Shown: positions 53,217 through 64,000 of the stretch, in pieces | Layout: the number at the start of each line of letters is the position of its first letter | Position numbering within the stretch: position 1 is the stretch's first letter | Source: Anaerolineae bacterium | Lineage (GTDB): Bacteria; Chloroflexota; Anaerolineae; Aggregatilineales; Phototrophicaceae | Direction: 5' to 3' | Assembly (NCBI GenBank): GCA_016789005.1 | Contig: JAEURA010000254.1 | Location: 37,837-101,836 of the forward strand | Length of the DNA: 64,000 bases | The notes under the pieces: model-generated | Told to the model about the DNA's origin: nothing | Databases searched by the model: none | The model's input: only the letters and a program-made list of their open reading frames with translations | Program-made: the position numbers and the translations under genes

Positions 53217-54467
53217 TCAGGATGTGCGGTTCACCGGAAGGTCGAGCGTGAAGGTTGAGCCAATACCAGGCTGACTGCTCAGATGGATGTCACCGCCGTG
53301 CAGACGAGCGATCTCCAGGGCGATCGCCAGTCCCAATCCTGCGCCGGGGGAATCGGTCGACAACCGAACGAATGGCAGGAACACCAGATGCGCCTGGGAT
53401 TCGGCGATGCCTGTGCCGGTGTCCTGCACTTCGATGCGCGCGTGATCTTCGCGCAGCACGGTGCGAATCGTGATCTGCCCCTGCCGCGTATACTTGGCAG
53501 CATTGGTCGCCAGGTTGCTGATCGCCTGTCGCAGTCGCAGCGGATCGCCGTCGATCTCGATCAGGGCGGGATCGAACTCCGTCTCCAGCCGTACTCCGGC
53601 GTGGAGCATCTGCCGCGCCTCATCCGCCGCCTGTGCGCACAGGGCGTTGATCGAACAACGCGCATAGTTCAACGACAGGCTTCCTGAACTCAGGCGCGCG
53701 CTGTCCAGCAGATCGCCCACCAGCCGGTCGAGATGCTCTCCCTCGCCGATGATCTGTTCCAGATAGGCGCGCTGAGGTTCTGCCGATGCGCTGCGGCGCA
53801 GCAGTTTGGCAAAACCCAGCACCGAATTCAGCGGCGTCCGCAGTTCGTGGCTGACGCGCGCCAGGAAGCGATGGCTCTGCTGACGCACTTCTTCTGCGAC
53901 GTGCGCTGTGCTGATGTCGATGGACAGATGACTGAGAAAGCGGAGCGTCTGGAAGGTGTAGGCGGCGAGCAGGATGTCGTAACTCACCAGGATGGAGCGG
54001 CTGGGTTCCAGCCGGGGCGCGCCGGGCAGCACCTCGAACACGAGGTTGACCCAGAAGGCAGCGATGCACAGGACCTGCACAAAACCGCGCTGCCGTCCCG
54101 AATACAGCATGCCGCTGATCGTGTAGGGGATGAGCGTGGTCAGCGCCGTCACCGGTCCCAGCCCCAAGATGACCATCCCCTGCAAGCCAAAAACGGCGAC
54201 GAGAGAGATCATCCAGAACAGTGATGCGCCGCCAAACCACCCCACCCCATAGATGAACGCCACAGCGCCTGCCAGAATGCCATATGCCCAGGGATGCGGC
54301 ACGTCCTGAAAGACCGCCGCCGCCCACAGGACGACCTCGCCCAGCACGAGCTGCCAGCCGCGCGTGCGCCAGTAGCGGTCGATCTGCGCCTGCGCCGTCG
54401 CCTGGACCGGTGGTGGGAGGAGGTTATCTTTGTCCGGAAGCAGCCCGCTGAAGAGTTCGCGCCACAT
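53217..54467 (-). CDS. Membrane sensor histidine kinase (HisKA-HATPase)
   Basis: SHELRTPL, NLATNAAKY, DTGTGI, F.PF, GAGLGL, GSTF; N-terminal TM bundle. Confidence 0.95.
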   Translation of the reverse strand: MWRELFSGLLPDKDNLLPPPVQATAQAQIDRYWRTRGWQLVLGEVVLWAAAVFQDVPHPWAYGILAGAVAFIYGVGWFGGASLFWMISLVAVFGLQGMVILGLGPVTALTTLIPYTISGMLYSGRQRGFVQVLCIAAFWVNLVFEVLPGAPRLEPSRSILVSYDILLAAYTFQTLRFLSHLSIDISTAHVAEEVRQQSHRFLARVSHELRTPLNSVLGFAKLLRRSASAEPQRAYLEQIIGEGEHLDRLVGDLLDSARLSSGSLSLNYARCSINALCAQAADEARQMLHAGVRLETEFDPALIEIDGDPLRLRQAISNLATNAAKYTRQGQITIRTVLREDHARIEVQDTGTGIAESQAHLVFLPFVRLSTDSPGAGLGLAIALEIARLHGGDIHLSSQPGIGSTFTLDLPVNRTS

Positions 54468-54783
54468 CGTCGGGGTCCAGGGGCTTTCTCAGATAGATGA
54501 ATTCGAAACCCGTCTGTCGCAGCGCGCAGGTTTGGTCGAAAGCGGAGGTGATGATCGTCGGAGCCTCGTGCAGGGCGCGAAGATCCTTCGCCAGACTGTA
54601 GCCGTCGCCATCCGGCAGGTCGAGGTCTATGATGTAGACATCCGGTGGATCGCTCGCTGCGCGCTGGCGCGCTTCGGCGCATGATGCGGCAGTCACCAGC
54701 CGGTGCGGAGTCAGATCGCGAATGATCGCCTCCATCAGGAAGCGCGCCGGGGGATGATCCTCGACGTAGAGGATCAGGCTCAT
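54424..54783 (-). CDS. Single-domain response regulator (REC only)
   Basis: YVEDH, IIDLDLPDGDG, ITSAF, RKP; 119 aa. Confidence 0.92.
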   Translation of the reverse strand: MSLILYVEDHPPARFLMEAIIRDLTPHRLVTAASCAEARQRAASDPPDVYIIDLDLPDGDGYSLAKDLRALHEAPTIITSAFDQTCALRQTGFEFIYLRKPLDPDDVARTLQRAASGQR

Positions 54784-55592
54784 CGTGTGACCTCATCGAT
54801 CAGGCGGTCCACACGCTCCGCCTCGGCGATAATCTGCTCGATCAGCTCCTCGGCGTCCGCCTGTTCCAGCCTGCCCTGCCGTTCCAGCCGTCCCGCCAGC
54901 AGACGCGCCAGCCCCATGAGCGTATGCAGCGGCGTGCGCAGTTCGTGGCGCACATGGGCATCAGCGCGCGGAAGTTCGCGCAGCGCTTCGGCGGCGCGCA
55001 GTGCACCTTCGCGATGATCAACATTGAGCTTGGCGTAGATGTTCGACCAGTGATTGCGCACCGTGCCGTGAGAAATGCCCAGCGCTGCTGCCGTCGCCTG
55101 GTTATCGTGACCGCTCGCCGCCAGCCGCAGAATAGCGCGTTCGCGATCGGTCAGGCGGCGCTGGCGGCGCGCCTGCGTCATGCCCAGGATCGCCGTCTGC
55201 GACAGGAATGGGCGTCCCTGGGCGACGGCACGCACGGCATCGACCATATGCAGCGAGAAGTCGTCGCTTTTCACAACGTAGCCGTGCGCTCCGGCGTCGA
55301 GCAGATCGTCGATCCAGACCGGATCGTCATAGGCGGTGAAGATCAGGATCTTCATCTGAGGTGAGCGGGCGAGCGTCTCGCGGACGAAGCTTGCCGGGTC
55401 GAACGCTGCGCCGGCAAACGCCAGATCGAGGACCAGCACATCCGGCGGAAACTGCTGAACCAGCCGGGGCAGCGTCGCAGGCTCCCCGGTTTCCCATAGG
55501 ATAGTCACATCCAGCGCCCGCGTCAGTTCCTGCCGCAGCACCTTCAGGATGAGGGGGTGATCATCTGCCAAACCGATTTGGATCGCCGCCAT
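54780..55592 (-). CDS. NarL/LuxR response regulator with C-terminal HisKA (DHp) domain
   Basis: ADDH, VLDL, FTAY and VVKS receiver motifs; LTDRERAIL...TVRNHWSNIYAKL HTH; then HELRTPL...EAERVDRLIDE. Confidence 0.9.
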   Translation of the reverse strand: MAAIQIGLADDHPLILKVLRQELTRALDVTILWETGEPATLPRLVQQFPPDVLVLDLAFAGAAFDPASFVRETLARSPQMKILIFTAYDDPVWIDDLLDAGAHGYVVKSDDFSLHMVDAVRAVAQGRPFLSQTAILGMTQARRQRRLTDRERAILRLAASGHDNQATAAALGISHGTVRNHWSNIYAKLNVDHREGALRAAEALRELPRADAHVRHELRTPLHTLMGLARLLAGRLERQGRLEQADAEELIEQIIAEAERVDRLIDEVTR

Positions 55593-55644
55593 GCCCGCAT
55601 CATTTCGTATCATCTGTCCGCGATTGTACCCCGTAAAAACAACA

Positions 55645-55676
55645 GAGGGGGGAGTCGTTCTGGCGACTCCCCCCTC
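55645..55676 (-). terminator. Rho-independent terminator of the tad cassette
   Basis: Perfect 13-bp stem GAGGGGGGAGTCG/CGACTCCCCCCTC followed on the - strand by TGTTGTTTTT. Confidence 0.85.
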
Positions 55677-55733
55677 CGCTTGATGGTGACTCAACCTCAC
55701 CCCTGGAGCACAGGAGTGAGGCTGTTCCTCTGG

Positions 55734-58718
55734 CTAGCCGCCCGCGCCGCTGTCCGTCGGAAGCGGCGGCAGCGTGTTCGTCGGCGTCCGTGTCGGCGAT
55801 GGCGTCGGCGTGTTGGTCCGCGACGGTGTCGGCGACGGCGTATTCGACGGCGTATGCGTGGTCGTCGGCGTGTTCGACGGCGTGAAGGTCTGCGTCGGCG
55901 TTCGCGACGGCGTCCGCGACGGCGTGTTCGTCGGCGTGTTGGTGATCGTCGGCGTCCGCGACGCCGTGTTCGACGGGGTGAACGTCGGCGTATTGGTGAT
56001 CGTCGGCGTCCGCGATGGCGTATTCGTCGGCGTCCGCGATGGCGTATTGGTGATCGTCGGCGTGTTGGTCCGCGTCGGCGTATTCGACGGCGTATTGGTG
56101 ATCGTCGGCGTCCGCGATGGCGTGTTCGACGGTGTATTCGTCGGCGTATTGGTGATCGTCGGCGTGTTGGTCCGTGACGGCGTCGCCGTGATCGTCGGCG
56201 TGTTGGTCCGTGTCGGCGTCCGCGACGGCGTCCGGGTGATCGTTGGCGTGCGCGACGGCGTGATCGTCGGCGTGTTCGACGGCGTCCTCGTGATTGTTGG
56301 CGTCCGCGATGGCGTGCGCGACGGCGTCAAGGTGGTCGTCGGCGTCTGCGACGGCGTGTACGTCTGGGTCGGCGTGCGCGATGGCGTGCGCGACGGCGTC
56401 AGCGTGGTCGTCGGCGTGTTGGTCGTCGTGCTGGTCGCCGTATTCGTCGGCGTCGGCTGGACGGTCGAAACGTCGGTCACAATCGGAGTCGGGCAGGACG
56501 GCGCGTCAATGTAGAAGACACTGCCGTCGAAATCCTGCGGAAGCGATCCGAAATCGACCGCCACCGTATTGCCCGCGCCGCCACTGAAGATGAAGAAGAG
56601 CGATTCCGTCGCGCCCGGCGGGATGGTGATCACGCTGAGCCACGTCCCCTCAATCGGCGACACGCCCGATGTGGCGCTGCCGCTGGTTGTATCGGCGGCG
56701 GTATCCGGTCCCGCCCACATCTGCACGCTGCTGGAGTCGCCCGGTGCAGCGCCAAGCCCCCAGACCTGCGCCAGCGTCATCGCCGGAGCGCGTGTATCAG
56801 CAGCGGACCACTCCAGTCCGAAGCCGAGCACGGTCGCCGGGCTGAGCACACGGTTGTTGGTGATGTCGAAGCGAACGATGTCGAGATTCTGGAAGATGAC
56901 CGACGACACGCTGACCAGATCCGGTTCGCAGGCGGGCGTGCTCGTCGCCGTTGGTGTCGGTCCCGGCGTGTTGGTTGGAACCGTCACGTTGAAGACGGTC
57001 GCGCAGTCGGTCGTGCCGTTCAGGTCGTCGTAATAGAACGTCGTGCCATTGAAACCAACCTGCGGCATCACGCTCGGATTCAGCACCAGCGGAGCGTTGG
57101 CAAACTGCACCAGGAAGGCGTTCGCGCCCGGCTGGATGAGCAGGTTCGCACCCACCGCGAAGTCATACTCAGGCGTCCCGGATATCGGCGTCGGCGTCCC
57201 GGAACCAACCGTGACGATGTAGCCGACATCGGTCGGCGATGGGTTATCGGACCCAGTCCAGACGACCGAACCCGGCGTCCCCAGCCGGAACAGCTGAGTC
57301 GACAGGTCAGGGTAGCCCGCAATCGAGGGCCAGACCAGCTGAACGCGGCGAAGCTCGACGGAGTACGGCAGGCTGTTGGTCAGCGTGAAAGTGACCGTTC
57401 GGTTCACATAGTTGATGGTGCTGCCAACCGTCACGTTGCTGCACTGGAACACCGGCGTCTGCGATGGCGTCCGCGATGGCGTCACCGAAGCAGTTGTGGT
57501 CGGCGACGGGGTGTCTGTTGGAGTCGGCGAATGATTCGGCGTATCCGTATAGGTCGCCGTGTCCGTTGGGGTCGCCGTGTTGACGCCCGGAGCCGTCGGT
57601 GTTTCGTAGGAAGCATCAATCGGCTGGGGAGCGCGGAAGGCTTCATTGACAGCGATGCGCCGCGCCTGAAGCGGGACAAACGGCGCCAAGCCCAGCGGGG
57701 TCACCAGCGGATGGTTGAAGGTCACGACCACCGCGATGGTATCTCCCGCGCCACCGGCATCCCAGAAGGACACGCCTTCGTCAATCGAACCGCTGCCCTT
57801 GTAGGCGTTATCAGTCCATCCGTCCGCTTCCAGATCGCCCCCAGCGGTGGGGTATTCGCGCAGGAGGCAGACAGGTGCACGGGGATCGGTATTCGCGCCA
57901 AAACCGCCCTGGTTCAGGATAGGCGGGAAGCGGAAGCGCTGCGCATAATTGTTCGCCGACGGCTCGTTCGCCTGGCGAAGCTTTGGTCGGCTGCTGCAAA
58001 CCATCACGTCGAACCAGCCCGGTTCATCAGAGAAGCGCTGCCGATAGTATTGGGGCGGCGTCAGCGCGTCGCTGTCGTGGTCGCCCGGAAGCGGGCGATA
58101 CCAGGGATAGAACCAGGGGAGGTTCGCGAAGTCGGGATAGCTGGCGTCGAGAGTCCCAGGAACACCCACAGGCGGCAGGGGCAGCTGCTGCGGTCCAAGC
58201 GCCAAGCCGGCTGCGCCGAGACGCGCCTCATCGTAGATGGAAAGGATGCGTGCCAGGTCTTTGCGGCGATTCTGATCTTCGGTGTCGCCGGGGTCGCAGT
58301 CGTCGCCGCCATAATAGGAGGCGTACAGGCTTTCAACGCCCCCCACGAAGACTTCGATGGCGCGCGCTCCGGTATAGGGAGTCATCGTCGTCGCTGTGCC
58401 GCGCTGCGCCAGATCGACCACGATATCGCCCGTATTCTTGGCGCAGGGCACGATAGAATTCAGGTCGCCTGTGTAGACCGGATCGGTCTGATCGTACAGG
58501 CGAAGATCCAGCTGATATTTCACTTCATCGTACTGACCGGTCGCCGCCAGGCGCGCCGCCGCTCGCGCCGAGTTCTGGAGCGTCACCCAGGCTTGAAAGA
58601 TGCGTCCGAACTCGATCACGCCGAACAGCAAGATCAGCAGTATCGGCAGAGTGAGCGCAAACTCCACCAGAGTCTGCCCTCTTCGACGTGTACGTACCTC
58701 AATGACTTGTTCTGCCAT
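55734..58718 (-). CDS. tadE: Giant TadE-family pseudopilin with two repeated extracellular modules and Pro/Thr tail
   Basis: [27 protein letters not shown] prepilin motif; TadE C-terminal strands [12 protein letters not shown]; PT-rich segments. Confidence 0.85.
55737..56492 (-). repeat. Low-complexity Pro/Thr repeat region ([10 protein letters not shown])
   Basis: About 250 aa dominated by TP, TPT, NTP and SRTP units. Confidence 0.9.
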
Positions 58719-58772
58719 AGCTCCCCCGGCGCTAGACTAGACCCACTGACGCAGCCATAATGCAGCGCGGCG

Positions 58773-61616
58773 TCATCCTGACAGCCTCGTAAACATCCTC
58801 GAAGCGATTTCATGGAACACTTCGGCAAGCTCAGCGCCGCCTGAAGCGTTGAAGTAATTGCCGCAGTCCTGCTGCGGCGCGACCGGCTGGAACGTGCCAC
58901 CCGGATTCGCCGGGCTTACCGGCGTCGTCTCTTCGCAGGCGCCACGCGCGCCCCAGTCGGGCGGCGCATTGCCGATTCTGCCGCTGATCTGCGCCTGCCA
59001 GTAATCAGCATCGATCTGGAAGTTGTCGCCGACATCGGCGATGTAGCGCAGCAGCTCTTCGCCCAGATAATCCTGGCGCAGAATCTCCTGATGTGTCTTA
59101 TTCGTCCGCGGGGTCGTACCACGCATACAGGCAGCGTCACCGCCGCAGGAGACGGCGGTCCCGGCATCGTAGTTCAGCCCGAAGCCGATGGTGAAGATCG
59201 TCGGCAGAAGCTGATCCGAAAGGCGCGACGTCCCCGCATCATCGACGACCGCGCCGGGGAGATCGGACAGCCCGATCCAGTCCGCCCAGTCGCGGGCGTA
59301 GTCGTCCACGTCGTAAAACTGATAGCAGTTCAGCGGATAGTCATCCATGCGCAGCAGCGCCGGATTCACCGCCGTCGTGCCGCACTGCGTGCGGGTAGAT
59401 GGCTCCAGGTCCATGCAGTAAGGCGGAACGGTGTCGATCAGCAGTTCGCCATTGACGGCATCAGAGCCATAAGGACACACGCCATAAACGCCGTATGCTT
59501 CGTTCGGCAGCGGATAATCGGCAGGCGTATTCAGCGGGCTGTTGTTGCCCAAGGCGTTGAGCGGGTTGTTGTAGAAATTGCCGCTCACTTCGACCAGATT
59601 GTAGGGCTGCGGTTCAGACAATCCGGCATAGTCTCCGGTGCGGGTGACCGGGTCGCTCGCGCCTGCCGCACCGTCGCTCAGCAGCACCATGACCCAGACT
59701 GCGCCTTCACGGCGGGCGGTGGCATAAAGCGCATCCGCGCCGGCGCGCAGCGCTCCGCCAATATTCGTCCCTCGGCAGGAGCCGCGAAACTCATAGCTGA
59801 CGGAAGGCTTGCTGGTGGAACCAGTGTACCAGTGCGGAACTGAGTGAATGTCCGTCAGGAGCATCTGATCGTAGGGACGCGCCGAACCATCGGGCAGTGT
59901 ATCGTGCAGCGTCCAGAAGTTCCAAAGATTTGCCGAGTCGAATGGACAGGCGCCGCGCACCGGATTGTCTTTCAGATTGCCGATGAGCGTACCGTCGAGT
60001 CCATCATAGGTCTTGGGTGTGCCGTAATCGAGCAGGCTGTCCCACTGTCCGTCGTTGTCGGCGTCGTAGTAGGTGGAGTCTTCGGCGCGTACGCCAACCA
60101 TCGCGTTGAGCACGTTGTTCGCCCCGCGGCGCAGCAGCGTCGTGCCATCCGTATCGAACAGGTCGAATTCCGTCTCGATCATCGCCGACTGCAACCCATT
60201 GCCGTCCGGGTCGATGATGGTGGCAAAGCGGTCGAAGGTGACGAACGCCACACGGTCGCCGCGCAGGAAATCGAGGCGCGCCAGAAATTCCTCGGCGGCA
60301 TCGCGCGCTTCGCGGAAGGGCTGGCAGACCAGATCATCGAAGTTGAAATCGCCGTCGGGGTCGTTACAGCAGCCAAAATAATCGTACTGCGGCACGAAGC
60401 CGCTGAAGTTCTTGCTGAGCGACGGGTCATCGGCGTCTGCTGATGTTCCGCCGAACTGCTCGGCGTAGCTGGTGCCGAAATAGCCGTACAGCTCGGTGCG
60501 GAAATCCGCCTGCGCCGGTGAGCGCCCGCCGATGACGGAGTTCGGATACGCCCGGACGCGGCAGAATTCGCGCGGCTCCTCACGCCCGACCGGAGAACTC
60601 CCCGCGCCGGTGTACGCCTGCCACGTCCCCGCCGTCGCCCCCGGCTCGAACTTGACGACCGGATCGTAGATCGCCCAGCCAACGTCGTCGTCGCCATCGA
60701 CCAGGGTCCGGTCACAGTTAGCAGGATCGGCGGGAGCCGAAAGTGCCGAATAGATTGAAGAGTTCAAACCATCCACGCCACCCTGCGTGCTCAGAAGGAT
60801 CATCTCCCAGGGGTTGCACCGGCCCGGGGTGAGCGCATTGCCATCGGGATCGCTTTCGCCGCCAAAATCGTAGGCTTTGACGTAGGGCGGCATATAGCGC
60901 ACGCCCAGTCTGTCTCGACCGGCGTCACCCGTGTATTCCGGGATCATGTCCCAGTCATCGTAGGTCGTTTCATTGAGCATGGACTCCGAAACGTCGAAGA
61001 CCAGGACGACATCAATGACGGCGGTCTGCGACAGCGCCGACTCAGTCAGGGTGATCGTGTCGTAGCCCAGCAGCCGCATGAAGATGGTCGGCGCTTCGAT
61101 CTGCGCCGTCACACGCACGACTTTCAATTCATCTTCGGTGCACAATTCGCGATAGCGCCGCACATCGTCCTGGTTCGCGGCGAGGTTGGGCGTCCCGTCA
61201 GAATTGAACAGCGCCGTCCCGTCCCGGTCCAATGGCGCCTCGGTCACCGCATCGCGCGGGACCTGCTGGAAGCGGCAGGTCTCGACCAGCACGTCGGTCG
61301 GGCTTAAGCCGTACAGCTCGATGAACTCGCGCGCGGCAAGGCTGAGCTGGGCGACGCTTTGCGCTTCATCCTGGGCGATTCCATCGGTGGGAGTCTCATC
61401 GATGACGCGCCGCATCTGCCCCGCAGCCGCAACCGACGCCGCGTCGACCGCGCGCCGCATCGTGCTGTAGCGGATGAACAGCAGCGATACGTCGGTGACG
61501 ATGCCGACAAAACCAAGCAGCCCGATAAACCCAATCGCCAGCACAACGAGCGCCTGACCGGTCTGCCCTCTTCGGACAAAGTGCCTGGTTATCGCTGACA
61601 GAAAACGCTTCATCAT
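58773..61616 (-). CDS. tadG: TadG-like pseudopilin with vWA domain
   Basis: GQALVVLAIGFIGLLGFVGIVTDV prepilin motif, MIDAS DVSES, TNIGGAL, VLLSDG, FTIGFG. Confidence 0.85.
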   Translation of the reverse strand: MMKRFLSAITRHFVRRGQTGQALVVLAIGFIGLLGFVGIVTDVSLLFIRYSTMRRAVDAASVAAAGQMRRVIDETPTDGIAQDEAQSVAQLSLAAREFIELYGLSPTDVLVETCRFQQVPRDAVTEAPLDRDGTALFNSDGTPNLAANQDDVRRYRELCTEDELKVVRVTAQIEAPTIFMRLLGYDTITLTESALSQTAVIDVVLVFDVSESMLNETTYDDWDMIPEYTGDAGRDRLGVRYMPPYVKAYDFGGESDPDGNALTPGRCNPWEMILLSTQGGVDGLNSSIYSALSAPADPANCDRTLVDGDDDVGWAIYDPVVKFEPGATAGTWQAYTGAGSSPVGREEPREFCRVRAYPNSVIGGRSPAQADFRTELYGYFGTSYAEQFGGTSADADDPSLSKNFSGFVPQYDYFGCCNDPDGDFNFDDLVCQPFREARDAAEEFLARLDFLRGDRVAFVTFDRFATIIDPDGNGLQSAMIETEFDLFDTDGTTLLRRGANNVLNAMVGVRAEDSTYYDADNDGQWDSLLDYGTPKTYDGLDGTLIGNLKDNPVRGACPFDSANLWNFWTLHDTLPDGSARPYDQMLLTDIHSVPHWYTGSTSKPSVSYEFRGSCRGTNIGGALRAGADALYATARREGAVWVMVLLSDGAAGASDPVTRTGDYAGLSEPQPYNLVEVSGNFYNNPLNALGNNSPLNTPADYPLPNEAYGVYGVCPYGSDAVNGELLIDTVPPYCMDLEPSTRTQCGTTAVNPALLRMDDYPLNCYQFYDVDDYARDWADWIGLSDLPGAVVDDAGTSRLSDQLLPTIFTIGFGLNYDAGTAVSCGGDAACMRGTTPRTNKTHQEILRQDYLGEELLRYIADVGDNFQIDADYWQAQISGRIGNAPPDWGARGACEETTPVSPANPGGTFQPVAPQQDCGNYFNASGGAELAEVFHEIASRMFTRLSG

Positions 61617-61642
61617 ATCGATGCCCACTCAACTCGACTGGA

Positions 61643-62818
61643 TTACGGGTCAGGGAAAACGATGAACGGCTCGACCGCGGGAAGCGGGAACGCCGCCCAT
61701 ACGTAGATGATCATCTTGCCGTCTTCGTTGCCCACCGCAGTGAAGACGGGCGACAGCACCGGAATCTTCAGCAGCATCTCGTGTTCCCAATACATTTCGA
61801 CCAGCGAAATGCCCTGCCCCGGAATCATCGTGCGTGCGTCGTTATCGAGAATTTCGTAATTCGGAAGGTTGACCAGGTCCTCGATCCGGCGCATCGTCCA
61901 TTCCGAACCGACGCAGGCGGTTCCGGGAATCCTGTGGTTTCCGAACAGCGAAAAACCGACCTGCTTCTCGGCAGCGGCGACGCTTCCGGCAGGAACGTCG
62001 AAATCGCCTAGATCGCCGTGTTCGGTGAAGTCGTTGGAGCTGTCCAGGACCAGCGTCGCTTCGCGTTGGTCCCACTGATTGTTGTCATTGAGATCAAAGG
62101 GATCGCGCGGTTCGCGCGGCACAACGGCATAAACGCCGGGGGAAGTTTCGGCGACATCGCATTCATTAGTCTCTGCCGGGTAGCGTCCCACGACGACCAG
62201 CTGAGGGATATCACCGGCGACCGGGCGATCCACAGGGAGCCAACCGGAGAACGTGCGCGGATCGACGTTTTCCACCGCGTAGCCGGTCACAATAATGTCG
62301 TCAATATCGTTAGCCTCGTTGAGCGACAGCGGTTCCAGGGAGATCAGCATGGTGCAGATCACTTCATTGAAGAAGAGACGGTCCACCGAAGTGGTGTCGC
62401 ACGCGCCAGTACCAGCTGCCGCATCGACGGCATTCCAGCGATACCGCTCGCGGTAGGTGTCTTTTGATTTGGGTGGTATTTCCAGCGCCAGCGCATCTTC
62501 AGCGGCGGTGTACGCCATCTGGTAAGGCAGGTCCAGCTTGCTCCAGGGGACGAAGCTGAATTCACGGAACCAGGCATCGGCGATTGGCGACTGCTGGTCG
62601 ACCAGCGCGGTACCGCGGCGCGCCCCAGCGCGGGTCACATCCAGGATGGACAGGTAATTGTTGGCGAACCAGCCGATTTCAACCAGCCCGGCGAGCAGAA
62701 TGATCAACAGCGGCGTGACGAGCGCCAGCTCCACCATGCTCTGCCCCGCCTGCCGACGACCATACTCGGCGGGTGTGCCATCGAGGACCTGCAGGATTTT
62801 CTTCAGGATCGTGCGCAT
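61643..62818 (-). CDS. tadE: TadE-family pseudopilin, enlarged
   Basis: AGQSMVELALVTPLLIILLAGLVEIG, DATRVGARYG, C-terminal GMVLVELFWEHELL. Confidence 0.85.
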   Translation of the reverse strand: MRTILKKILQVLDGTPAEYGRRQAGQSMVELALVTPLLIILLAGLVEIGWFANNYLSILDVTRAGARRGTALVDQQSPIADAWFREFSFVPWSKLDLPYQMAYTAAEDALALEIPPKSKDTYRERYRWNAVDAAAGTGACDTTSVDRLFFNEVICTMLISLEPLSLNEANDIDDIIVTGYAVENVDPRTFSGWLPVDRPVAGDIPQLVVVGRYPAETNECDVAETSPGVYAVVPREPRDPFDLNDNNQWDQREATLVLDSSNDFTEHGDLGDFDVPAGSVAAAEKQVGFSLFGNHRIPGTACVGSEWTMRRIEDLVNLPNYEILDNDARTMIPGQGISLVEMYWEHEMLLKIPVLSPVFTAVGNEDGKMIIYVWAAFPLPAVEPFIVFPDP

Positions 62819-62877
62819 CACCAGTTCGCTCGTCTTGTGGAGATAAGCCGGGGAATCCTAGGGCTTCCCGCAGTTTC

Positions 62878-62888
62878 ATCATACCACA
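62878..62888 (-). promoter_or_regulatory. Possible extended -10 promoter of the tad cassette
   Basis: TGTGGTATGAT on the - strand (TGn-TATGAT) about 60 nt upstream of the first tadE; no clear -35. Confidence 0.4.
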
Positions 62889-62952: not shown

Positions 62953-63654
62953 TCAGGCTTCGTCGTCCACCAGCACGCGCGCCTTGACCACATAGCCCCT
63001 ACCATGACGTGACTGAATGACCGCTGGACGTTCCGGGTCGTCCTCGATCTTGCGGCGGAGGTTGTGAATGTGATTGCGCACCAGCGCCGCATCGCCGACG
63101 CCTTTAGGATACTGCCACACGCCGGCAAGCAGGTCTTCCGTCGAATGCAGTTTGTGCGGGGCGCTGCACATATACTTCAGAAGGTCGAACTCGACACGGG
63201 TCAGGGTAAGTTCTCGGCTCTCCATGAATGCCCGAAACTGCGTAGGAACGATACGCAGGATCGGAACACTTTCTTCACCGTAGAGTGCCGACCGGCGGAT
63301 GTGCGCGCGGACCCGGGCGATCAGTTCGCGGGGCACGAATGGCTTGCGGATGAAATCGTCACCGCCAGAATTGAGTGCATCCACCACGTTATTGGAGGAT
63401 GTATTCCCTGTCAGGAAGATGATCGGCGTATTGGATGTCTGCGGGTGCGCCCGCAGTTTCCGGCACAGCGTGATGCCATCCATCTCTGGCATCATGGCGT
63501 CGATCACGAAAAGATCAGGCGTCTGGTCAGCAGTCTGCTCAAGCGCATCAAACCCCGAAGAGGCACGTTTTACCGTGAACCCTTCGCGGCGCAGCACAAG
63601 CTCCACCATATCCAACATCTGAATATCATCATCGACAATCATGATTTCGTACAT
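62953..63654 (-). CDS. OmpR/PhoB family response regulator
   Basis: IVDDD, IDAMMPEMDG, FLTG, KPF, LTRVEFDLL, VRNHIHNLRRKIE, GRGY. Confidence 0.95.
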   Translation of the reverse strand: MYEIMIVDDDIQMLDMVELVLRREGFTVKRASSGFDALEQTADQTPDLFVIDAMMPEMDGITLCRKLRAHPQTSNTPIIFLTGNTSSNNVVDALNSGGDDFIRKPFVPRELIARVRAHIRRSALYGEESVPILRIVPTQFRAFMESRELTLTRVEFDLLKYMCSAPHKLHSTEDLLAGVWQYPKGVGDAALVRNHIHNLRRKIEDDPERPAVIQSRHGRGYVVKARVLVDDEA

Positions 63655-63789
63655 TGTGCTACCCGACTTCGTAGTTCGAACTTGTATGAAGTATAGCTGG
63701 TCCAATGCAATTGCAGCATGGCGCTACCGTGAATAATTCATGAAATGCGCGGCGCTGAAAGGCTTCACCAGGAGGCAGTCGAAGCGCTT

Positions 63790-64000
63790 TCAGGTCGAAA
63801 TCATATAGCCGACCCCGTGAATTGTGCGGATGTAGCGACGCTGCGCGCTGCGCTCCAGCTTCGCCCGCAGGTTGCGCACGTGTGCGCGAACCAAATCGGG
63901 GTCGCCCGTGTTCGGCGGATACTCCCAGACTGCCTGGAGCAGGTGTGAAGGCGATAAAGCCTGGTTCGGATGTTCCATCAGATAGCGCAGCAGACGGTGC
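63790..64000 (-). CDS. OmpR/PhoB family response regulator, C-terminal winged helix (5' part outside window)
   Basis: HRLLRYLMEHP...VW.Y...DLVRAHVRNLRAKLE...IRTIHGVGY. Confidence 0.88.
   Translation of the reverse strand, partial: HRLLRYLMEHPNQALSPSHLLQAVWEYPPNTGDPDLVRAHVRNLRAKLERSAQRRYIRTIHGVGYMIST

Follow-up and report, generated by a model that had tools for sequence, protein, structure and literature searches.

Three large modular Tad pseudopilins in an Anaerolineae bacterium: a detached operon for the probable tip complex of a secretin-less Tad pilus

An operon of three pseudopilin genes

The window analysed here is a stretch of 64,000 nucleotides (G000:C177:37837-101836) from the genome assembly of an Anaerolineae bacterium (GCA_016789005.1; 5.45 Mb in 352 contigs, 63% G+C, 90% complete) and lies on a contig of 117 kb, C177. 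On its minus strand, three co-directional open reading frames (ORFs) named tadE1, tadG and tadE2 form a set that encodes pseudopilins of the Tad type, with intergenic gaps of 14 and 54 bp. A sequence-only reading of the window had described this set as a cassette of three enlarged Tad pseudopilins, and both the ORFs and their Pfam families agree with that description. The first gene, tadE1, spans 61643-62818 (minus strand) within an ORF of 61643-62821 and encodes a TadE-type pseudopilin of 391 aa (P0001); its start is the ATG at 62818, given that Met2 is invariant in 64 orthologues. The second, tadG (58773-61628, minus strand; P0002), encodes a TadG-type protein, with a probable vWA domain, that is 951 aa long when counted from a GTG and 946 aa from the second ATG. 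The third, tadE2 (55734-58718, minus strand; P0003), encodes a TadE-type protein of 994 aa. Usual TadE proteins measure about 150-200 aa, so that TadE1 and TadE2 are both outside the usual size, and both are also encoded outside the tad locus.

The set ends in an intrinsic terminator 54 nt past the tadE2 stop (55680-55641, minus strand), with a 17-pair stem of which 11 pairs are G-C, a 6-nt loop and a following GTTTTT, which bears out the strong terminator proposed earlier. The proposal of an own promoter stands only in part: an element resembling an extended -10, TGgTATGAT, can be made out by eye at 62878-62886 (minus strand), 60 nt upstream of the tadE1 ATG, but it is weak, its -35 is poor and the promoter scan called no promoter on the minus strand. 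The scan also detected no terminator-like site between tadE1 and the response regulator gene upstream of it (RR1, see below), and it is therefore possible that the cassette is transcribed by read-through from the upstream regulators. From their arrangement, the three genes are predicted to be co-transcribed as one operon.

Prepilin sites and protein architecture

Both TadE proteins are clear members of Pfam family PF07811 (TadE), the profile of which covers the N-terminal 43 positions. At a cut-off of 22.9 bits, TadE1 scores 42.2 bits (E 8.7e-11) and TadE2 60.5 bits (E 1.7e-16); in a six-frame search of the genome the scores are 47.3 and 66.5 bits, respectively. NCBIfam gives for P0003 a weak match to TadE_Rv3655c only. 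TadG matches the Pfam Tad family PF13400 with 20.6 bits in hmmscan, where the cut-off is 22.3, and with 25.4 bits, above the cut-off, in the six-frame search.

The sequence-only reading had noted a prepilin motif in each of the three proteins, and the alignments of their orthologues confirm that the cleavage sites are invariant. In TadE1 the site G26|Q27 (G|QSMVE), together with S28 and E31, is kept in 63-64 of 64 orthologues, G26, Q27 and E31 being invariant. The site of TadE2, G14|Q15 with E19-F20, is present in all 46 orthologues, and that of TadG, G24|Q25, in all 55. The same alignments reveal that a glutamate at position +5 is always found in both TadE proteins and never in TadG, where I, V, L or F occupies this position (Glu in 0/55). 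In type II secretion and in type IV pili, a minor subunit without Glu5, such as GspK, caps the filament. Since TadG also is without Glu+5, it would by analogy with the tip-capping GspK be the distal, outermost subunit.

The leader of TadE1 (window positions 62744-62818, minus strand; residues 2-25) is unusually conserved for a prepilin leader. Over the 64 orthologues M2, L13 and D14 never vary, and the conservation of G15, P17 and G21 reaches 90% or more. In TadG and TadE2, by contrast, the leader is variable.

Behind its conserved 25-aa leader, TadE1 has a hydrophobic helix and a globular part of about 320 aa. This globular part has no match in Pfam or the PDB and, among 300 genomes sampled evenly across the phylum, occurs in just one other genome, of the same genus; it thus appears to be lineage-restricted. 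A profile-profile comparison of TadE1 and TadE2 (hhalign) finds homology in the first ~75-90 residues only and is negative for the two globular parts. Searches of the PDB chains with the TadE1 and TadE2 orthologue alignments, by sequence and by profile, returned nothing.

TadE2 is composed of a pilin module (residues 1-360; 57639-58718, minus strand; Pfam TadE and AlphaFold2 (AF2) model), two tandem beta-sandwich modules (56499-57446, minus strand; AF2 model) and a C-terminal Pro/Thr tail of ~250 aa (55737-56486, minus strand; composition and repeats). The AF2 model of residues 1-745 (pLDDT 77.8) places helices at residues 4-60, an alpha/beta part up to ~360, a disordered Pro/Thr linker and then the two beta-sandwiches. 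These cover residues ~425-585 and 600-740, consist entirely of strands modelled with pLDDT mostly between 82 and 96, and are joined by Pro/Thr linkers. Each opens with an invariant cysteine (C426 and C597) and the sequence patterns of the two are alike. By Foldseek the model displays only a fold-class likeness to tandem beta-sandwiches (ClfB, FnBPA, CBM22 and RbmA; TM <= 0.24). A homologue search with the beta-sandwich region yielded four proteins, all of them TadE2 orthologues, and no other domain context. The last ~250 aa are 39% T and 20% P and have a Gly-rich end; in the DNA they correspond to degenerate tandem repeats whose periods range from 12 to 156 nt. Pro/Thr tails of 84-531 aa with a Gly-rich end are present in all 45 listed TadE2 orthologues. 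In many of these (L023, L030, L031, L042, L049, L050, L054, L057, L065, L066, L084 and others) the Gly-rich end is followed by a C-x3-5-C motif, for example GGGCTDNCG; the TadE2 of the window ends in DSGAGG and has no such cysteine.

TadG carries a putative vWA domain. In P0002 itself the vWA matches (PF00092/PF13519) remain below the cut-off with 18.7 and 17.2 bits. Among 39 TadG orthologues, 36 match Tad (E <= 0.01), 23 match VWA_2 (best E 4.8e-9) and 19 match VWA. A motif like the metal-ion-dependent adhesion site (MIDAS), D212-x-S214-x-S216...T621...D652, can be followed through the alignment, with D212 in 55/55, S214 in 44/55, S216 in 48/55, T621 in 30/55 and D652 in 53/55 sequences; the strand pattern of a vWA domain is present and the putative domain is split by several large insertions. 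The AF2 model of TadG (pLDDT 77.7, pTM 0.79) begins with a 69-residue N-terminal helix (residues 3-71), and its top Foldseek matches are vWA pilus-tip adhesins (RrgA, GBS104, Streptococcus sanguinis PilB, Mfa5 and SpaC), none of them significant (E >= 0.16). A search of the PDB chains with the TadG alignment gave a vWA protein as best match (E 0.013) and nothing usable.

Location of the Tad machine

Whole-genome profile searches detected no T2SSE, T2SSF, peptidase A24 or Flp gene in the window or elsewhere on C177, all matches being on other contigs, as expected from the earlier remark that the window holds no assembly genes. The machine is encoded on contig C81, which carries genes for a LuxR regulator, a HisKA_3 kinase, cpaB (SAF+RcpC), cpaE with a receiver domain, cpaF for the CpaF-type ATPase, tadB and tadC. 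The last of these extends past the end of C81, and the same searches place the end of TadC on C282. They also locate a single A24 prepilin peptidase on C315, and found no secretin. The genome has, in sum, a complete secretin-less Tad machine (cpaB, REC-cpaE, cpaF, tadB and tadC), three flp genes and one A24 peptidase.

Alignment to a 60-kb stretch of a relative with 90-92% identical DNA puts the contigs in the order C177, reversed C81, C282 and C255, and the gap between C177 and C81 corresponds to about 36 bp in that relative. Across this contig join, cpaB starts ~25.9 kb and cpaF ~28.5 kb upstream of tadE1, and the core operon is divergent from the cassette. Between the two are about a dozen genes called unrelated, which include those for two OmpR regulators, a GAF kinase, a PspA-like protein, a polytopic GT-C-like run, a Bac_transf sugar transferase and a HEAT/NACHT protein. 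The core tad genes are thus located, some 26 kb off, and do not follow immediately beyond the regulators as one locus with the cassette. A similar arrangement exists in the relatives. Each of the ten long-contig relatives examined has cassette and cpaF on one contig, at a distance of 21-37 kb in nine and of 190 kb in one. In none of 72 related loci, all from Anaerolineae metagenome-assembled genomes (MAGs) that are mostly labelled Aggregatilineales or Phototrophicaceae, is cpaF, tadB or cpaB found within 10 kb of the cassette. The cassette is detached from its machine, and the linkage between them is loose but mostly conserved.

Two of the flp genes encode identical 48-aa proteins (MLYMPREEGQG|LVEYALIL...; C207:52491-52598 and C344:7865-8011, minus strand), and a divergent third flp lies on C221 (minus strand). 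None of the three adjoins the tad core or the cassette, and one of the identical copies directly precedes a receiver/LuxR-type regulator gene. In addition, an ORF cut by a contig end (G000:C144:3-2252, minus strand; identical to L093:3-2252, minus strand) encodes a protein in which the N-terminus of a Flp-type prepilin (...KPARG|QALVEYALILVLL...) continues for at least 716 residues more, first as a Pro/Thr linker and then as a large region without a Pfam match. This fusion may represent a 'modular Flp' adhesin of the same genome.

A single, vertically inherited set

Identity is highest, at 95%, to an Anaerolineae MAG, and Ca. Flexifilum affinis comes next with 76%. The host is placed in the order Aggregatilineales, in a genus near Ca. 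Flexifilum, among uncultured filamentous Anaerolineae. The order TadE1-TadG-TadE2 is kept in 72 of the 72 related loci, each of which has one cassette, and a TadE1 homologue is found in 23 of 24 genomes of the genus and in most of the order. In the present genome PF07811 has two matches, both in the cassette, and PF13400 one further, also in the cassette, in an assembly that is 90% complete. The G+C content of the cassette equals that of the genome. Between the two closest genomes, whose DNA is 90-92% identical, the cassette proteins are 90-98% identical and their neighbours 80-99%.

These features point to one fixed set that is inherited vertically. They speak against the earlier notion of an interchangeable plug-in module, which would sit poorly with a single copy, a fixed order in every locus, a normal G+C content and a divergence like that of the flanks. 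The count of paralogous cassettes likewise came to none, the only TadE and TadG genes of the genome being those of this cassette. In this assembly the cassette therefore appears as the only minor-pilin set that the machine could use.

That a missing TadE1 homologue would go with a missing Tad motor was considered and rejected: all five TadE1-less genomes tested have cpaF, and other pairs of large TadE genes occur in four of them. In the two genomes of the order where no TadE1 homologue was detected, cpaF is present together with large TadE frames, of 376 and 1281 aa in one case and of 1848 aa beside a 76-aa TadE-like frame in the other.

Upstream regulators and glycosyltransferases

That regulators flank the cassette on both sides, as had been read from the sequence, is corroborated by Pfam searches with the neighbouring proteins. 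Upstream, the OmpR-family response regulator RR1 (62953-63705, minus strand; Response_reg and Trans_reg_C) is followed by a second OmpR-family regulator, RR2, which lies partly in the window (63790-64000, minus strand) and extends past its end (L001:4427-5131), and by a GAF histidine kinase just beyond the window on the same strand as RR2 (L001:5151-7727). The constancy of this neighbourhood can be judged from the 50 loci with a full 10-kb upstream flank. RR1 and RR2 are each found upstream of the cassette in 48/50, RR1 starting less than 1.3 kb from tadE1 in 46. The GAF histidine kinase is present in 45/50, a PspA-like protein in 40/50, a 576-aa polytopic membrane protein in 37/50 and a PMT_2-type glycosyltransferase in 36/50. 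The genes of this upstream block are co-directional with the cassette. Such conservation marks the upstream regulators as partners of the cassette and not as incidental neighbours, and the GAF kinase and the two OmpR regulators probably control its expression.

The polytopic GT-C-like run (G000:C177:105000-117110; L001:7769-19817) consists of the 576-aa protein, PMT_2, GT87, a 482-aa protein, a YfhO-like protein and a 647-aa protein. A Bac_transf phosphoglycosyl transferase (C81:13334-15178) is encoded between the cassette regulators and the core tad operon.

A probable minor-pilin priming and tip complex

We consider it likely that the three proteins are the minor pilins of a monoderm-type Tad (type IVc, Flp) pilus and form the one complex that primes it and occupies its tip. 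Family membership, the prepilin motifs, the single-copy argument and published precedent all point in this direction, and the AF2 models of TadE2 and TadG, with a long N-terminal helix followed by globular parts, are consistent with minor pilins. A precedent exists in Myxococcus xanthus, in which pilus formation requires TadE/F/G-like triplets and these make up the pilus tips; three of the four sets are stand-alone clusters (PMC12075869). In the earlier proposal of an interchangeable tip module for machinery encoded elsewhere, it is the separation from the machine that holds; the cassette is most plausibly the minor-pilin and tip set of that machine, and it is its interchangeability that has to be given up.

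The course of events that we infer from these data, from the processing of the three proteins to adhesion at the tip, is as follows. The lone A24 prepilin peptidase would remove the three leaders, and the three hydrophobic N-terminal helices would associate into a bundle within the membrane, on the platform of TadB and TadC. This complex would prime the CpaF-driven polymerization of Flp and, because it does so, would come to lie at the distal tip of the pilus. TadG, as the outermost subunit, would present a metal-dependent vWA (MIDAS) adhesion domain, and TadE2 would add its two beta-sandwich modules and its long, probably glycosylated Pro/Thr tail. Such a tip could attach the filaments to surfaces, floc material or other cells, with the GAF kinase and the two OmpR regulators probably setting expression.

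Several observations weigh against this explanation. The operon does not share a transcript with the genes of the machine. The 90% completeness of the assembly leaves room for a second cassette on unassembled DNA. In P0002 itself the vWA domain scores below threshold, and none of the fold matches reaches significance. Finally, the giant Flp-fusion protein could be another adhesin in the genome.

The main rival, which we regard as unlikely, holds that the N-termini of the TadE and TadG proteins are mere membrane anchors, or form a short pseudopilus, for a surface adhesin complex that is made, glycosylated and regulated by the upstream block without Flp filaments. It would fit an operon that is physically and transcriptionally apart from the machine and whose tightest partners are a two-component system and GT-C glycosyltransferases, not tad genes. 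The 250-aa Pro/Thr tail also resembles the envelope-spanning regions of monoderm surface proteins, but it is located at the C-terminus and not between the anchor and the functional domains. Moreover, a simple anchor would need neither an invariant peptidase site nor Glu+5, and a complete Tad machine with its flp genes would be left without the minor pilins that are required in the systems studied (PMC12075869).

It is still less probable that the cassette is one of several swappable adhesin-tip modules served by a common machine, like the four Kil Tips of Myxococcus. This would account for a location away from the machine and for a possible own promoter and terminator, and it has a precedent (PMC12075869). 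Nevertheless, the genome contains no second TadE or TadG gene, the 72 loci each have one cassette in fixed order with fixed neighbours, the G+C content is normal, and the divergence between two close genomes is the same in the cassette as in its flanks. The possibility that the genes are decaying or mis-called, which the many long spurious frames that the genome gives at 63% G+C and the low-complexity repeat of the tadE2 tail might suggest, was examined and is effectively refuted by conservation, with full-length orthologues in 72 loci sharing dozens of invariant residues, Cys pairs included, by the Pfam matches, which hold, and by confident AF2 models.

The minor-pilin tip complex could also be part of something larger. 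A rather doubtful extension takes the whole co-directional block, which is conserved in the order and reaches from the GT-C/PMT-like glycosyltransferases through the PspA-like protein, the GAF kinase and both OmpR regulators to the three pseudopilins, as one functional unit, in which a signal-controlled tip, with a TadE2 tail O-glycosylated by the PMT-like enzymes, would be mounted on a constitutive machine. If this were true, the pilus would have a glycosylated and separately regulated tip, and a mucin-like sticky brush would govern the binding of filaments to flocs or epibionts.

Comparison with known systems

The paradigm for such proteins is the TadE/TadF/TadG set of Aggregatibacter actinomycetemcomitans, Pseudomonas aeruginosa and Caulobacter. 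Here as there, three genes encode members of the same families (PF07811 and PF13400) with Gly-1, a TadE Glu+5 and a large TadG with a C-terminal module. The cassette differs from classic Tad loci in its position ~26 kb from the tad locus, in its divergent orientation and in its order E-G-E. Its two TadE proteins have a modular build and reach 2-5 times the length of 150-200 aa that is usual, their globular parts belong to no known family, and one bears a long Pro/Thr tail. The machine, in contrast to the classic one, has no secretin and is of monoderm type.

The KilL/KilM/KilN proteins of Kil Tip1-4 (Nat Commun 2025, PMC12075869) are likewise encoded in three-gene TadE/F/G-like sets, some of them away from the machine. 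Priming of the pilus and decoration of its tip have been both proposed and demonstrated for the Kil Tips, in which the large subunit provides a backbone with an exposed module. However, the Kil sets are four in number, partly redundant and interchangeable, and serve predation, whereas here a single, vertically conserved set is found, with no sign of predation and with a conserved dedicated kinase and two regulators upstream.

In Streptococcus sanguinis, PilB (vWA) and PilC (lectin) provide the example of a monoderm type IV filament with an adhesion module grafted onto a minor pilin. PilB (7b7p and 7ba2) is among the top fold matches of TadG, although not significantly so (E 0.3-1, TM 0.32-0.34). 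That system is of type IVa and not Tad, and the putative vWA domain in the present TadG is interrupted by several large insertions.

Closest in phylogeny are the Chloroflexales, of the same phylum, for which 'rcpC-tadZABC, tadEEG and flp' have been given as separate gene sets (Gaisin et al. 2020, PMC7332563), so that the pseudopilin genes are apart from the others there too; that study gives no sizes, domain analysis or neighbourhood for tadEEG. Thin pili taken for Tad pili have been described on the filamentous Chloroflexota species Litorilinea aerophila (bioRxiv 10.1101/2025.08.19.671072). Ca. Flexifilum grows as long filaments within the flocs of activated sludge, and its MAGs have been noted to contain Tad genes (PMC10746286). 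The operon is of a type already known and is no new kind of system. What is new is the contig join that places the machine 26 kb away, the upstream kinase/regulator/glycosyltransferase block, the Glu+5 pattern and the domain architecture of TadE2 and TadG.

Filamentous Anaerolineae such as Ca. Flexifilum shape the structure of wastewater flocs (PMC10746286), and the operon names the likeliest adhesive parts of their Tad pilus. These would be a MIDAS/vWA head, two unclassified beta-sandwich modules and a mucin-like tail, under the control of their own sensor kinase and two regulators. As such they offer targets for antibodies, proteomics and expression studies. The 2025 idea of a 'functional tip complex' would be extended to a Tad system of monoderm type, where modularity is shared by all three minor pilins and not confined to TadG.

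Other motor genes and the downstream neighbours

A second T2SSE ATPase gene, PilB/GspE-like and encoding 584-589 aa, is situated at a contig end (G000:C127:15559-17313, plus strand; L003), and no PilC-type platform gene matching it was found in the assembly. In relatives there is a second CpaF paralogue (52-62% identical), which this assembly does not contain.

Downstream of the cassette, the window carries a trio encoding a kinase, a small receiver and a LuxR regulator, together with an extra HisKA-like piece (53217-55700, minus strand). This trio was considered as a part of the cassette and rejected, being present in only 3 of the 48 loci with enough downstream flank; its presence here is put down to chance of lineage. 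The longest ORF of its first gene, from a GTG at 55700, overlaps the cassette terminator, and the gene therefore starts further downstream.

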